This document shows, one piece after another, positions 19,052 through 23,754 of a stretch of 64,000 bases of DNA. Numbering within the stretch: position 1 is the stretch's first letter; every line of letters starts with the position of its first letter. A program made the position numbers and the translations under genes. Location: assembly GCA_963666285.1 (NCBI GenBank), contig OY762711.1; one strand, given 5' to 3'. The notes under the pieces were generated by a model. That model was not told the DNA's origin, ran no database searches, and worked only from the letters and a program-made list of their open reading frames with translations. The DNA is from Sedimentisphaerales bacterium. GTDB taxonomy: Bacteria; Planctomycetota; Phycisphaerae; Sedimentisphaerales; SM23-30.

Positions 19052-19105
19052 CTGGATATAGCCGGACCAAAACTATATCATTTAGGATGTCGGTTTTGGG
19101 CCGGA
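19052..19105 (+). repeat. Copy 2 of the shared upstream motif, containing an inverted repeat
   Basis: CCGGACCAAAAC (19062-19073) and GTTTTGGGCCGG (19093-19104) match 11/12 as an inverted repeat; 19 nt identical to 13167-13185. Confidence 0.7.
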
Positions 19106-19146
19106 AGAATATAGGAAATTCAATATTAACTCGAGAAGGATTTAAC

Positions 19147-21411
19147 ATGAATTCATTACGTATCAGATTATCACTCGTTATTCTACTTACATTTAACCTG
19201 GTAACTGCCTGGGCGGCGACTACATCATCAGAACTCGCCCGGCTTGTACCTGACAATACCATTTTTCTAATCTCTTGCAGCGGTGGCGAAAGCCTTAAAG
19301 CCGATTTCGAAAAAACTATTATAAGTAAGGTATGCCAAGACCCGCAGGTAAAGGTCTTTGTCGAGCAGCTGACAACATCACTCCAGGTAAGCAGTCCGCA
19401 GGTTAACGGCGCTATAAATATGCTGCCGCTGATAATCACTCCCATCCGGGATAGCCAACTGTTGAGCGAACCGCTGGTAATTGGTGCTGCTTATGACAAT
19501 CTTGACATTGAAAATGAGAAAGTAAACGGCTGTATTTATATCGCTGCTGCCGGCGGACCGGATAAGCGTGCGAAAATCCAGAATATGGTCCAGTCGTTCA
19601 GTTTCCTTACCGGCCAGCTAATGAGCCAGGACCAGACCGCGGATGATTACTACCAGTATGACTTCCCCGGAGCGAAATTAATCATGTCAGGCACAGAGTC
19701 CTGCACATTTATAACATTTGGAATGGCTGATAATGCCGATAAATATATGTCCGGCCTGATCGCAACCGCAAAAAAAAGTAACACCCGTAAGCCGGAGATT
19801 ATAAATATATTCGATAAATTTTCCGGCAGAAGCAGTGATATAAAAATTGCGATAAACACTCCCCTGATAATTTCCGAATTGAAGAAACTGCTCGAAATAC
19901 CTGAGATCAAATCCAAACTGGAAAATGATAGCGATGACGCAAAAATTGTTTATGGCTTACTCGACATCATTTCGCCGATGGGCAAGATCGGAGCCAGGAT
20001 CGGATTCAACGACAGCCAGATCGAAGTGGAAAATATTTGCGAGAATTTCGGCAATGTCGTCTTGAATGACTGCATGCTACCGGTCAACAAATCAGTTTTA
20101 AGAGCAGTTTCAAAAGACGTAACCGGCTTTTATCTAACCAATGTAAACCTGGAGAAGGTCATAGAGCAGGTAAAGTCACTTATCTTACAGTTTGACGGAC
20201 AGGAAACCCTGGATGATATAGCCGAAGGACTGGAAGATGCTAAAAGTGAAACCGGTATCGATCTCAGTAAAACCATCTTTACCAACTTTACCGGTGAGCT
20301 GCTTTTTTCATCAAACGGCACACAGACAGCAGCCATGCTCGGCAGTTCAGGCTATGCCATACTCGGAGTTAAAGACTGTGACCTGATGATAGAGACTTTC
20401 CAGAAGCTTATCGAGCTATTAAAAGAAAAAGCCGGTGCCGATATGAAAGTGAGCCTAGTCAAGTCTGAATACAACGGATATGAGATTAATTCTCTAATAT
20501 TGCCGCAGGTTTCGATAGTCGGTCTGCAGCCGGCATTTGCGAAAATTGATGATAATCATATCCTTATCACGAGCAACATATCTGAAGCAATCCCGATAAC
20601 ACAGCTTCTGAAAGCGGCAGACAGCAGTAACAGTATTTTGTCAAACCCTAAATACATTGCCGCTTCGAGTGGATGCCCTGATAACGCTTTTTCGGTTTCT
20701 TATTCCGATACATCCAGAAGCTGGAACGCCTTGAACACCCAGCTTTCAGCCATTTGGCCACTGTTGTCGATGGGGCTGGCCGAACAGGGTATCGTTCTGC
20801 CGCCGATGCTGCCGAATGTATCGTATCTTATGGCTGACGCACCTGGTACTATTTCATGGTCGGCCTTTAAGGATAAGGACTTGATATCGTATAACCGCGG
20901 GCTGGCTGTCAACACATCGATGATGAACGTCAATGGCGGCAGCGCAGCTATAGCAGTATCAATTCTTATGCCGGCATTGTCGCGGGCAAAAACACTTGCA
21001 AAGAATACTGTTTGTCAGACTAACTTGAAGGGGATCGGAGTTGCTACAGTAATATATATGAATGATCACAAGGGAAAAGCACCTGATACTCTTGAAGAAC
21101 TTACCGAAGCAGACCTCACGGAGAAATCAATGATCTGCCCGGAATGTGAAGAGAAATATACCTGGTGCGGTAAGGGCCTGGATGACAGCTGCCCATTTGA
21201 CGCTGTTCTTGCCTACTGCGAATGCCATCTTGATGACGATCTGGGCTATAATGTTCTGTATGCAGACGCTCATGTCGCAAAAGTGGACGAGGAAAAATTC
21301 ATCGAAGTTATGAAAAAGAACAATACAATTCGCAAGCAGCTCGGACTCGAACAGATCGACATACCCGGCACTATCGATGAAACGGAAGTTAAAGAACTCG
21401 ATACATTTTAA
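19147..21411 (+). CDS. Exported DUF3352-like protein with C-terminal pilin-like/H-X9-DG (DUF1559-like) domain
   Basis: Signal peptide; LARLVPDNTIFLIS; SILMPALSRAKTLAKNTVCQTNLKGIG; H...GYNVLYADAHV. Confidence 0.7.
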   Translation: MNSLRIRLSLVILLTFNLVTAWAATTSSELARLVPDNTIFLISCSGGESLKADFEKTIISKVCQDPQVKVFVEQLTTSLQVSSPQVNGAINMLPLIITPIRDSQLLSEPLVIGAAYDNLDIENEKVNGCIYIAAAGGPDKRAKIQNMVQSFSFLTGQLMSQDQTADDYYQYDFPGAKLIMSGTESCTFITFGMADNADKYMSGLIATAKKSNTRKPEIINIFDKFSGRSSDIKIAINTPLIISELKKLLEIPEIKSKLENDSDDAKIVYGLLDIISPMGKIGARIGFNDSQIEVENICENFGNVVLNDCMLPVNKSVLRAVSKDVTGFYLTNVNLEKVIEQVKSLILQFDGQETLDDIAEGLEDAKSETGIDLSKTIFTNFTGELLFSSNGTQTAAMLGSSGYAILGVKDCDLMIETFQKLIELLKEKAGADMKVSLVKSEYNGYEINSLILPQVSIVGLQPAFAKIDDNHILITSNISEAIPITQLLKAADSSNSILSNPKYIAASSGCPDNAFSVSYSDTSRSWNALNTQLSAIWPLLSMGLAEQGIVLPPMLPNVSYLMADAPGTISWSAFKDKDLISYNRGLAVNTSMMNVNGGSAAIAVSILMPALSRAKTLAKNTVCQTNLKGIGVATVIYMNDHKGKAPDTLEELTEADLTEKSMICPECEEKYTWCGKGLDDSCPFDAVLAYCECHLDDDLGYNVLYADAHVAKVDEEKFIEVMKKNNTIRKQLGLEQIDIPGTIDETEVKELDTF

Positions 21412-21525: not shown

Positions 21526-21554
21526 TTGACATTGCTCATTTATGTCGATAGACT
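21526..21554 (+). promoter_or_regulatory. Sigma70-type promoter of the metG leader
   Basis: TTGACA (21526-21531), 17-nt spacer, TAGACT (21549-21554). Confidence 0.75.
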
Positions 21555-21600
21555 AATATATAGTAATAAACAAATAATGGCATTTACCAAGGAGTTTGTT

Positions 21601-21702
21601 ATGCCGAGCAATTTGACAAAATCAGAATTTCGAATGATGTCTCATATGGAGATGTCAAGGCGGACTCGGTTTGTCTTCTGCTCGGGAACTATGATACTTT
21701 AG
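21601..21702 (+). CDS. Met-rich leader peptide MPSNLTKSEFRMMSHMEMSRRTRFVFCSGTMIL (33 aa)
   Basis: AAGGAG RBS at 21589-21594; ATG at codons 12, 13, 16 and 18; overlaps the antiterminator 5' arm; below the ORF-track size cutoff. Confidence 0.8.
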   Translation: MPSNLTKSEFRMMSHMEMSRRTRFVFCSGTMIL

Positions 21703-21761
21703 ATTCTCTCAGAGCAGAAATTCAAGCCCGGAAGTCCCCAAATAGCTTCCGGGCTTTTTTT
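21665..21761 (+). promoter_or_regulatory. Attenuator: antiterminator plus intrinsic terminator upstream of metG
   Basis: Terminator stem AAGCCCGGAAG (21724-21734)/CTTCCGGGCTT (21746-21756) with T tract. Alternative stems TTCTGCTC (21676-21683)/GAGCAGAA (21712-21719) and GGTTTG (21668-21673)/CAAGCC (21723-21728). Confidence 0.8.
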
Positions 21762-21802
21762 ATTTATATAATCATACACAAAAATATAAAAACGAGAATC
21801 AA

Positions 21803-23236
21803 ATGAAAAATCAAATATATATAACAACAGCAATTCCATACGTAAACGGAGACCCGCACCTGGGTTTCACACTCGAACTCGTCCAGGCAGATGTAATCGC
21901 CAGGTACTACCGACTGATAAACACCCAGACACTGTTTCAGACCGGCACAGATGAAAATGCGTTCAAAAATGTGCTCAGCGCCCGCCGGGCCGGCATAGAA
22001 ACCAGTAAATTTGTCAGGCATAATGCCGACAAATTCCTGCGTTTGAACGACAGGCTGAAAATATCGTTAGACAGCTTTATCAGAACCTCATGCAGCAGTC
22101 ATCAATCAGGTGCCCAGCTGCTCTGGCAGCAATGCCGTCAGGAAGACATATACCAGAAAAGCTATACCGGGCTATACTGCACCGGGTGCGAAGATTTCCT
22201 CAACGAAGGCGTGCTAATCGACGGGCTATGCCCCGAACACCGTCAGCCGCCAACCGAAACCAGCGAAACTAACTACTTCTTCCGCCTGTCAGCCTATCAG
22301 GACAAGCTCGAAAAACTTATCTCCGACGACACTATCAGGGTAGTACCGCTGGCCAGGAAGAACCAGGTACTAAGCTTCATCAGAAGCGGGCTGCAGGATT
22401 TCAGTATTTCCCGCAACAGCGACAGGTCCGGCGGCTGGGGTGTGCCTGTCCCGGGTGACCCATCCCAAACGATCTATGTCTGGATCGACGCACTGGCAAA
22501 TTATCTGACCGGGATAGGGTTCGGCACCAACAATTCCTGGCTGCAAACCTGGAACGAACATAGTAAAAAGATCCACGTTATCGGCAAAAACGTATGGAAG
22601 TTCCACGCTATCTACTGGCCCGCTATCCTGCTGTCTGCCGGGCTGCCGCTGCCGAACGAAATAGTCGTTCACGGGTTTCTAACTGAAAACGGATCGAAGA
22701 TAAGTAAATCGCTTGGCAACGCAACCGATCCAAATATACTGATCGATCAGTACGGCCCGGACCCGCTGCGATATTACCTGCTGGCTGAGTTTTCGCCCTT
22801 TAATGATGGCGACTTTTCACTCGACAGGTTTAGAAAGACTTATGAAACCAGGCTGGCTAATACGCTTGGAAACCTGCTCAGCCGACTGACAACTATCTGC
22901 CAGAAATCGTCTTTCAGTAAATTCGATCCTGCCGGCATCCCCCAGGCACCGGACGGATTCCATGATTTTATCGCACAATATCAGCTCGACAAGGCCCTGG
23001 CATTATTGTGGTCTGTCATAACAACACTTAACCAGGATATCGACAACGTAAAACCATGGATACTGATCAAGGAGAATAAACTGGAAACCGTAAGGGAAAT
23101 TCTGCCCAGGTGGCTCGCCCGGCTCGAACAGGCGGCGTACTGGCTAACCCCGTTTATGCCCGACACTGCCGGTACAATCCTAAAAACGATCAGGAGCAAC
23201 CCCATCACACCCGGCGAAATACTATTTCCCAAATAA
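21803..23236 (+). CDS. metG: Methionyl-tRNA synthetase (short form, no C-terminal tRNA-binding domain)
   Basis: YITTAIPYVNGDPHLGF, TGTDE, CTGC...CPEH knuckle, YVWIDAL, FHAIYWPA, KISKS. Confidence 0.93.
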   Translation: MKNQIYITTAIPYVNGDPHLGFTLELVQADVIARYYRLINTQTLFQTGTDENAFKNVLSARRAGIETSKFVRHNADKFLRLNDRLKISLDSFIRTSCSSHQSGAQLLWQQCRQEDIYQKSYTGLYCTGCEDFLNEGVLIDGLCPEHRQPPTETSETNYFFRLSAYQDKLEKLISDDTIRVVPLARKNQVLSFIRSGLQDFSISRNSDRSGGWGVPVPGDPSQTIYVWIDALANYLTGIGFGTNNSWLQTWNEHSKKIHVIGKNVWKFHAIYWPAILLSAGLPLPNEIVVHGFLTENGSKISKSLGNATDPNILIDQYGPDPLRYYLLAEFSPFNDGDFSLDRFRKTYETRLANTLGNLLSRLTTICQKSSFSKFDPAGIPQAPDGFHDFIAQYQLDKALALLWSVITTLNQDIDNVKPWILIKENKLETVREILPRWLARLEQAAYWLTPFMPDTAGTILKTIRSNPITPGEILFPK

Positions 23237-23289
23237 CACCATACTATCAACAGCAATGCAAAGTTCAGATAATATGAGCTTTGCATTGT

Positions 23290-23754
23290 TTAGTTTTCTT
23301 TTATCGCTTCAGCCATATTTTCCGGCATGTCGGTAATAGTTATCTCGCGTGTGGTTTCGTTTATGTGTTTGATAGTGATATGGATCGGATCATAAGCGTC
23401 AACAATGGTATTAGTACGGTCAGCCCACTCTACCAGTACAATAGCCGGTCCGCAAAGCAGCTCATCGAACCCGATCGCCTCCAACTGGTCGGAGCTCTCC
23501 AGCCGCCAGGCATCCAAATGATAGATCATCAGCCGCCCTTCATACTCGTTCATCAGCGTAAAGGTCGGGCTGGTAACATCTTCAACATCGGGCACATCAA
23601 GCCCGGCGGCAATGCCCTTTATCAGGTGTGTCTTACCGGCACCAAGGTTGCCCACCAGCGACACCAGCGTGCCGGGGGCGACATTACGCCCGATCTGCTC
23701 GCCCAGTGCCAGGGTCTGGGCGATACTGGTACTTGTTATTGTTATACTGCTCAT
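23290..23754 (-). CDS. tsaE: tRNA t6A biosynthesis ATPase TsaE
   Basis: GNLGAGKT, VTSPTFTLMNEY, HLDAWRL, VEWAD. Confidence 0.95.
   Translation of the reverse strand: MSSITITSTSIAQTLALGEQIGRNVAPGTLVSLVGNLGAGKTHLIKGIAAGLDVPDVEDVTSPTFTLMNEYEGRLMIYHLDAWRLESSDQLEAIGFDELLCGPAIVLVEWADRTNTIVDAYDPIHITIKHINETTREITITDMPENMAEAIKEN

Follow-up and report, generated by a model that had tools for sequence, protein, structure and literature searches.

A short methionine-rich leader with three competing predicted helices, located in front of a methionyl-tRNA synthetase (MetRS) gene (metG) on contig OY762711.1 of a Sedimentisphaerales bacterium, is likely a ribosome-mediated transcription attenuator with Met specificity that turns on a backup MetRS when charged elongator Met-tRNA is short. 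We put the probability of this reading at roughly 85%. The analysis covered a stretch of 64,000 nucleotides (nt), hereafter the window, and followed up a sequence-only reading that had placed a Met-sensing attenuator ahead of metG. The gene is indeed a MetRS gene, but it is a second, nearly Met-free MetRS rather than the housekeeping copy. The sequence-only reading had overlooked a protector helix in the leader, the presence of two metG genes in the genome, and the fact that the protein made from this one has almost no Met. The elements of the unit are as follows.

21526..21554, plus strand: sigma70-type promoter-like site TTGACA-N17-TAGACT, with 10 of 12 consensus matches and a predicted start near 21561
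21589..21594, plus strand: Shine-Dalgarno (SD) sequence AAGGAG of the leader, 6 nt before the ATG, with an anti-SD duplex of −7.5 kcal/mol
21601..21702, plus strand: leader open reading frame (ORF) of 33 codons, with homologous leaders in related loci
21604..21620, plus strand: segment 1, the predicted protector 5′ arm, pairing with 21670-21685 and lying directly next to the leader start codon (covariation)
21634..21654, plus strand: control codons Met12, Met13, Met16, and Met18 (ATG frame enrichment in homologues)
21659..21691, plus strand: segment 2, the predicted antiterminator 5′ side and protector 3′ side (folding; homologous core helix)
21700..21739, plus strand: segment 3, the predicted antiterminator 3′ side, overlapping the terminator 5′ arm at 21724-21735 (folding)
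21724..21761, plus strand: intrinsic terminator-like hairpin with a 12-pair stem, 9-nt loop, and U7 tract (compensatory changes in aligned leaders)
21803..23236, plus strand: second metG, encoding a 477-amino-acid (aa) single-knuckle type-1 MetRS with one internal Met and the motifs HLGF, DENA, GKNV, and KISKS

Results

Anatomy of the leader

The ribosome-binding site and the 33-aa leader with four Met in seven codons were found just as the sequence-only reading had described them. The ORF at 21601-21702 translates as MPSNLTKSEFRMMSHMEMSRRTRFVFCSGTMIL, followed by a stop codon, and its internal Met are at codons 12, 13, 16, 18, and 31. By a rough estimate, the chance of at least four ATG within seven codons is ∼3×10−4 per leader at 2.4% Met, and among 51 SD-led short ORFs preceding a terminator in the same genome, this leader is the sole one with more than two Met in eight codons. 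The GC-rich terminator reported ∼40 nt before metG is also present, with a gap of 41 nt; its stem (21724-21735/21745-21756) has a predicted energy of −20.5 kcal/mol, and seven T occupy 21755-21761. A simple terminator scan missed this hairpin because its 9-nt loop exceeds the 8-nt limit of the scan. The alternative hairpin said to invade the terminator 5′ strand was recovered as well: GGUUUG at 21668-21673 pairs with CAAGCC at 21723-21728, enclosing a long inner stem (21676-21691/21700-21719), and the pairing can be extended to 21659-21667/21730-21739. The leader RNA as a whole folds with a z score of −4.5, and 0 of 200 shuffles fold equally well.

Conservation of the leader

From 305 genome loci and 210 metagenome loci, the best 80 of each set were used as homologous loci. 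A clade, defined by proteins of at least 46% identity, comprises 62 of 95 tree rows with a Shimodaira-Hasegawa-like (SH-like) support of 100 (FastTree) and spans at least six phyla: Planctomycetota, Armatimonadota, Chloroflexota, Spirochaetota, Lentisphaerota, and Bdellovibrionota. At least 180 nt of upstream sequence was available for 94 clade loci (68 non-redundant) and 58 outgroup loci (56 non-redundant). When the upstream ORF was chosen by SD strength alone, 35 of 68 clade loci had at least three internal Met, as did 1 of the 54 outgroup loci in which an ORF was present; terminators were seen at 57 of 68 and 2 of 54, respectively. A second, Met-blind rule, which chose the ORF by its distance to the terminator, yielded 59 terminators and 57 leaders at the 68 clade loci. 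Across the 1680 codons of these 57 leaders, 195 ATG are in frame versus 10 and 7 in the other two frames, and 45 leaders contain at least three internal Met. After two leaders without internal Met (L007 and L185) were dropped, the distance from the last control Met to the stop was 14–17 codons in 53 of the remaining 55, and 40 of the 55 have an extra Met within the last five codons. Conservation of a Met-rich upstream ORF before orthologous metG genes, which had been proposed as a check, is thus borne out: the Met runs, frame, stop distance, terminator, and competing helices are all kept across phyla.

A covariance model built from 33 of the leaders matched 26 of the 38 clade loci left out of its training and none of the 51 loci from the outgroup or of housekeeping genes. 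In four of five genomes it gave one strong match, ahead of the second metG, and in these four no second copy was found before other genes. When 150 genomes of the phylum were scanned, with 18 candidates scored per genome, there was one other match; it spans only 89 nt, a terminator-like hairpin among them, and its locus has no metG.

Competing helices and the predicted switch

The protector, antiterminator, and terminator are three predicted, covarying, and mutually exclusive helices. The consensus fold of the 33 aligned leaders, which are of the type beginning MPS, contains the protector, in which the start region is paired to the S-G codons, as well as the terminator; 11 of the 17 pairs show compensatory change. 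Compensatory changes affect 8 of 10 pairs of the terminator stem, and the outer protector helix is 91% paired with five compensatory pairs. In the consensus, ∼5 nt separate the final control codon from the antiterminator core, GGGCCUGG:CCAGGCCC; this core is 89% paired with 12 compensatory cells, a value reached by 0 of 500 shuffles. Because of a conserved complementary triple, GGGC..GCCC..GGGC, segment 3 is contested by segments 2 and 4. In the window leader and two relatives of the same genus the register of the antiterminator helix is shifted and the pairing is kept. Averaged over the 55 leaders, the cognate antiterminator duplex has −22.3 kcal/mol, versus −16.7 kcal/mol for swapped partners (48 of 55) and −14.2 kcal/mol for shuffled ones (54 of 55).

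In ribosome-free leader RNA of the window up to 21715, the protector (21604-21610/21679-21685) forms with a probability of 0.97–0.99. Masked folding of the window leader used three ribosome footprints and RNA in which the terminator 3′ arm did not yet exist. With the ribosome at Met12, Met13, or Met16, 8.7–8.8 of the 12 bases of the terminator 5′ arm are sequestered upstream. The corresponding values are 5.0–8.8 at Met18, 0.2–1.8 at codons 21-22, 3.0–5.9 at codon 25, and 0.8–2.6 at the stop. Across the homologues, masking was done both for a ribosome at the last Met under a 12-nt footprint and under a 9-nt footprint with the ribosome position scanned; with the latter, arm sequestration is 0.55–0.69 when the ribosome stands 2–4 codons before the last Met.

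Masked folding, which the sequence-only reading had called for, therefore predicts a switch in the nascent transcript and none in the full-length RNA, where the terminator wins. Given the assumed footprint and kinetics, the idea that stalling at the Met codons frees the antiterminator agrees with the window folding at Met12, Met13, and Met16 and with the homologues 2–4 codons before the last Met, but not at the last Met itself. An equilibrium switch in the full-length leader was considered and rejected, as folding shows none.

The second MetRS

The 477-aa protein scores 395 bits against TIGR00398 in a profile search (cut-off, 336), and its best PDB sequence matches are type-1 MetRS. Its structure model has a predicted local distance difference test (pLDDT) score of 92.6 and template modeling (TM) scores of 0.86–0.89 to MetRS structures. 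Zinc ligands C126, C129, C143, and H146 are invariant. With the types defined as in the portions of PMC8165550 consulted, the protein is a type-1 MetRS (family C, single zinc knuckle) with an anticodon-binding helical domain and no C-terminal tRNA-binding domain; by sequence and modeled fold, it would charge tRNA with Met. The housekeeping MetRS of the same genome is a 671-aa type-2 enzyme that is 25% identical to the 477-aa protein and has a C-terminal tRNA-binding domain; its gene has no comparable leader.

Active-site motifs are altered throughout the clade. The canonical HIGH and KMSKS become H[ILV]GF and KISKS; H-x-G-F is present in 71 of 94 proteins, GKNVWKFH in 93 of 94, and KISKS in 70 of 94, and Asn-Ala replaces His-Gly behind the catalytic Asp-Glu. 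According to the portions of PMC8165550 consulted, the Asp of the Asp-Glu motif belongs to the auxiliary pocket and the tRNA acceptor site. A full-text literature search found nothing linking the motif changes of the clade to known inhibitor-resistance positions, and the changes are no more than suggestive of such resistance. The second metG has a GC content of 50% (60% at third codon positions), versus 41% for the genome and 45–47% for two nearby genes, which is compatible with transfer. Among the matches listed, the closest named homologue is from Sedimentisphaerales (68%).

Methionine depletion of the enzyme

Internal Met is nearly absent from this enzyme and its relatives. Among 120 proteins (the query and 119 homologues), 80 have none and 28 have one, for 0.12% Met overall. 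In the locus set, Met makes up 0.15% and is missing internally from 57 of 89 proteins, as compared with 1.4% and 0 of 59 in the outgroup. Housekeeping MetRS of relatives contain 11–20 internal Met each, and of 504 ORFs of 430–530 aa in the genome of the window, none lacks internal Met and two have one. The loss extends to the KMSKS motif in the 70 of 94 proteins with KISKS, and Cys is not depleted (1.4%). Independently of the RNA evidence, this depletion points at Met-tRNA as the signal. Sulphur sparing was considered as a cause and is ruled out by the retained Cys, as is a zinc-free paralogue or zinc sparing by the invariant zinc ligands.

Distribution and backup status

Among 61 related genomes (that of the window and 60 relatives), the short MetRS form was found in five, each of which also has the long form. 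Another MetRS was found in 9 of 10 further carrier genomes (two as partial matches) and in two more carriers, so that 16 of the 17 carriers tested have one; L014 was left out of this count because it repeats the pattern of G001. In G001 (C1:936703-938134), the short metG is broken into two frames behind an intact leader and may be a pseudogene or a sequencing error. No conserved neighboring genes or biosynthetic cluster were found among the 68 clade loci. Three tRNA genes lie near metG in 50 loci, none of them tRNA-Met. In phage records, the MetRS proteins among the 10 of 23 matches listed are only 33–37% identical.

More distant relatives are found on plasmids of Rhizobium, Sinorhizobium, Agrobacterium, Streptomyces, and Embleya (41–44% identity, nine records) and form a sister clade with SH-like support of 100 (FastTree). 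At the five plasmid loci inspected (L198-L202), the MetRS has 1–3 internal Met, and upstream of its gene lies a short ORF, apparently leaderless, that contains a run of MM or MMM and is followed by a hairpin. Of 401 genomes of an actinobacterial class, six (L204-L209) have the sister form with 0–1 Met; its leader is similar but lacks a U tract.

Leader variants and flanking sequence

Three loci (L134:2084-2454, L191:2149-2485, and L147:1272-2480) contain tandem leader-terminator units with one RNA scaffold and His runs beside Met codons. In L147, the first unit lies ahead of a hisG-like ORF, whose match to Pfam HisG (E 3.5e-5) falls slightly short of the cut-off, and the second, a Met leader, lies ahead of metG; in L134 and L191, no gene lies between the units. 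These are possibly dual His/Met sensors, or the Met scaffold may have been turned into a his attenuator. Seven loci (L007, L009, L018, L145, L153, L162, and L166) keep the start-region protector and one distal Met without a Met run or clear terminator. The metG SD is predicted to be paired in several of them, all seven enzymes lack internal Met, and these leaders are possibly a translational variant. In a soil-type subclade (L161, L165, L176, L181, L183, and L184), a single control Met stands before the same antiterminator/terminator triple.

Downstream of metG lies one further feature.

23252..23290, strand not assigned: terminator-like hairpin (−21.6 kcal/mol) ending the unit, between metG and a convergent tsaE

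The metG unit is monocistronic, and this hairpin splits it from tsaE. Directly upstream of the unit, a 774-aa ORF (19087-21411) has no NCBIfam match; its C-terminal part includes a planctomycete-type prepilin-like stretch and what we take to be an H-x-D-x-H-like motif. In sequencing run X3, one contig agrees with metG to at least 99% between 21797 and 22697 and is flanked on either side by unrelated DNA; in this single contig, the leader has been replaced or interrupted, perhaps by insertion elements. Elsewhere in the genome, outside the window, nine tRNA genes including a fourth CAT tRNA lie on one strand within 3 kb (C1:5226832-5229866), an arrangement that resembles a mobile-element tRNA array. 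MetH matches in the genome are partial and separate, one with an internal stop.

Discussion

Proposed mechanism

A ribosome held at Met12, Met13, or Met16 would cover segment 1, leaving 21659-21691 free to pair with 21700-21739. This pairing of segments 2 and 3 would engage roughly 9 of the 12 terminator 5′ arm bases before the 3′ arm is made, and metG would be transcribed. A ribosome that has moved past codon 20 or reached the stop would free the arm, and transcription would end. In an untranslated leader, the protector (segments 1 and 2) would form first, so that the gene is likely off. The effective sensors would be the early Met codons of the run rather than the final one, and the antiterminator would exist as a kinetic intermediate only. 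In theory, initiator tRNA is used once per protein. Initiation on the leader would persist under the inducing condition as initiator tRNA presumably stays charged longer than elongator tRNA-Met, and internal Met may have been purged from the enzyme so that it can still be made under its own inducing signal.

Several observations weigh against this mechanism. In the full-length leader RNA of the window, the terminator forms with a probability of 0.97–0.98 in all 14 mask states; because it wins at equilibrium, the switch must be kinetic. Across the homologues, arm sequestration is 0.26 at the last Met versus 0.32 at the stop. A ribosome standing at the last Met is thus predicted to give no antitermination, and the model depends on an assumed footprint and on stalls at the first codons of the run. 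Real leaders do not exceed those with a shuffled segment 2 (0.53 vs 0.56; higher in 24 of 55), and with the 12-nt footprint at the last Met they are lower (4.2 vs 6.4 nt). The 33 aligned leaders are our own selection from the 55, and the relatedness of the rows inflates the shuffle controls, including the one given above for the antiterminator core; its pairs are changed on both sides in only 3 of 8 cases, which 99 of 500 shuffles reach. The geometry rule found no terminator at 9 of the 68 clade loci, several soil loci have a single internal Met in the leader, and a Bdellovibrionota-type subgroup lacks the Met run. A crude scan of the genome of the window found no other classical leader attenuator. 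Aminoacylation by the 477-aa protein is deduced from sequence and fold. The promoter proposed earlier is present at 21526-21554, yet taken alone this match is weak and near chance level: 11 promoter-like sites occur in 3.5 kb, as compared with 5.5 expected. Of the 55 homologous leaders, 33 (a raw count) have a loosely defined promoter pattern no more than 110 nt away.

Purpose and alternative explanations

Granted a Met attenuator, the trigger is, with slightly better than even odds, a housekeeping MetRS blocked by an inhibitor, analogue, or toxin, on the pattern that the title on the auxiliary TrpRS of Streptomyces (below) suggests, with low methionine supply second. An inhibitor is favored because the active site is remodelled, the spread is patchy and plasmid-borne, Cys is normal, and the zinc ligands are retained. 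A bolder reading, at somewhat less than even odds, is a widespread and mobile resistance cassette in two parts, in which the attenuator and a Met-free, remodelled MetRS would rescue translation when the housekeeping enzyme is blocked by a natural inhibitor yet to be discovered. Such an inhibitor might, for instance, be made by the agrocin-84-like clusters, which carry a spare MetRS gene.

A plausible second possibility, to which we give appreciable though lower weight, is that the same attenuator controls a low-Km (Michaelis constant) scavenging MetRS or an oxidation-proof one, serving methionine shortage or oxidative loss. A low content of the cognate amino acid is described as a starvation safeguard in biosynthetic enzymes in the part of PMC4209129 consulted, a Met-free protein would not undergo Met oxidation, the genome has partial MetH matches only, and the 68 loci show no conserved neighbors or biosynthetic cluster. 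This explanation has to contend with a Cys content of 1.4%, which argues against sulphur sparing, with invariant zinc ligands, which argue against a zinc-free paralogue, with active-site motifs altered clade-wide, and with a patchy spread (5 of 61 related genomes and 6 of 401 in the actinobacterial class) that includes plasmids.

The two explanations that dispense with Met-dependent transcription attenuation are both improbable. The terminator might be constitutive or merely damping, with the helices blocking re-initiation or controlling translation rather than transcription. Its dominance at equilibrium would fit, as would the Bdellovibrionota-type and actinobacterial leaders without a U tract, which apparently pair over the metG SD; however, the GGGC..GCCC..GGGC triple sets segments 2 and 4 in competition for segment 3, and the spacing from Met to stop is fixed. 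Slightly less probable still is that the leader acts by nascent-peptide arrest, for example on a ribosome-binding drug, with the Met codons incidental. Residues other than Met do recur (an initial MPS, R-A-W following the Met run, and S-G-x-M close to the end), but they sit on paired RNA segments and are explained by the helices; moreover, His runs appear on the same scaffold ahead of a hisG-like gene, and the loss of Met from the regulated protein speaks for Met-tRNA. Finally, a chance small ORF before an ordinary metG, to which only the near-chance promoter match lends anything, is refuted by the cross-phylum conservation, together with the leader and terminator enrichment over the outgroup, in-frame ATG, fixed spacing, the 1-of-51 genome scan, and the specificity of the covariance model.

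If the attenuator reading is true, it extends classical leader-peptide attenuation, a type of switch already known, to methionine as a new amino acid. Methionine is a hard case for attenuation because it also starts the leader, and a Met leader makes sensing of initiator versus elongator tRNA-Met directly testable. The backup MetRS clade, purged of nearly all Met even in KMSKS, would be an unusually clean escape from an inducing shortage. Should an inhibitor prove to be the trigger, the cassette would hint at a natural class of antibiotic not yet known, and the leader would be a ready-made biosensor or reporter for finding it. Tests are practical because cultured Rhizobium, Sinorhizobium, and Streptomyces strains carry the sister form, among them the plasmid-bearing Rhizobium sp. 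CCGE532 and Streptomyces sp. NBC_01558.

Comparison with known systems

The predicted unit shares with classical attenuators, such as those of trp, his, leu, thr, and pheST in E. coli, a cognate-codon leader ORF with a ribosome-binding site, a set of protector, antiterminator, and terminator helices, and a GC-rich stem with a U tract. It differs in that the antiterminator core begins only ∼5 nt past the last control codon and in that no Rfam family matches the locus at its gathering threshold (His_leader and Trp_leader reach ∼14 bits against cut-offs of 49 and 41). Control by a T-box (RF00230), SAM-I (RF00162), or MetJ was rejected, with no match at the locus or in the genome, which is 97% complete.

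Streptomyces reportedly has an auxiliary antibiotic-resistant TrpRS under ribosome-mediated transcriptional attenuation, going by the title of a 2010 paper by Vecchione and Sello. As far as that title goes, both systems place a second aminoacyl-tRNA synthetase gene under leader-peptide attenuation; here, in contrast, the amino acid is Met rather than Trp, the system spans many phyla, and the enzyme is nearly without its cognate amino acid. Titles by Gentry (2003) and Brown (2003) are said to tie MetRS2 to insensitivity to MetRS1 inhibitors. The portions of PMC7916415 and PMC8165550 consulted likewise describe a horizontally acquired MetRS2 that confers insensitivity to synthetic MetRS1 inhibitors. 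As there, two MetRS genes of different type reside in one genome, but in our case the extra copy is type 1, 25% identical to a type-2 housekeeping enzyme, Met-depleted, and leader-controlled.

A second MetRS in agrocin-84-like actinobacterial clusters is proposed to give self-immunity, according to the part of PMC8323819 consulted. By this description, it resembles the present enzyme as an extra copy beside the housekeeping one and suggests that natural MetRS inhibitors exist; unlike it, the 68 clade loci and the five inspected plasmid loci have no cluster genes beside them. In full-text searches we found no paper on a methionine-codon attenuator or a Met-free MetRS; an earlier prediction is possible in Lopatovskaya, Seliverstov and Lyubetsky 2010 and in subscription surveys. 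The sections of PMC1262725 consulted give no conserved RNA element before actinobacterial methionine operons, name the S-box for Met, and predict trpS2 and leuS attenuators in Streptomyces; the gGCC-rGCy-GGCC triple that they describe in actinobacterial trp attenuators resembles our complementary triple.

Lastly, the excerpts of PMC4209129 consulted describe a cognate bias in amino-acid biosynthetic enzymes, in which, as here, an enzyme needed under shortage of an amino acid holds little of it. The present enzyme differs in being an aminoacyl-tRNA synthetase in which the bias is near total and reaches the KMSKS motif.

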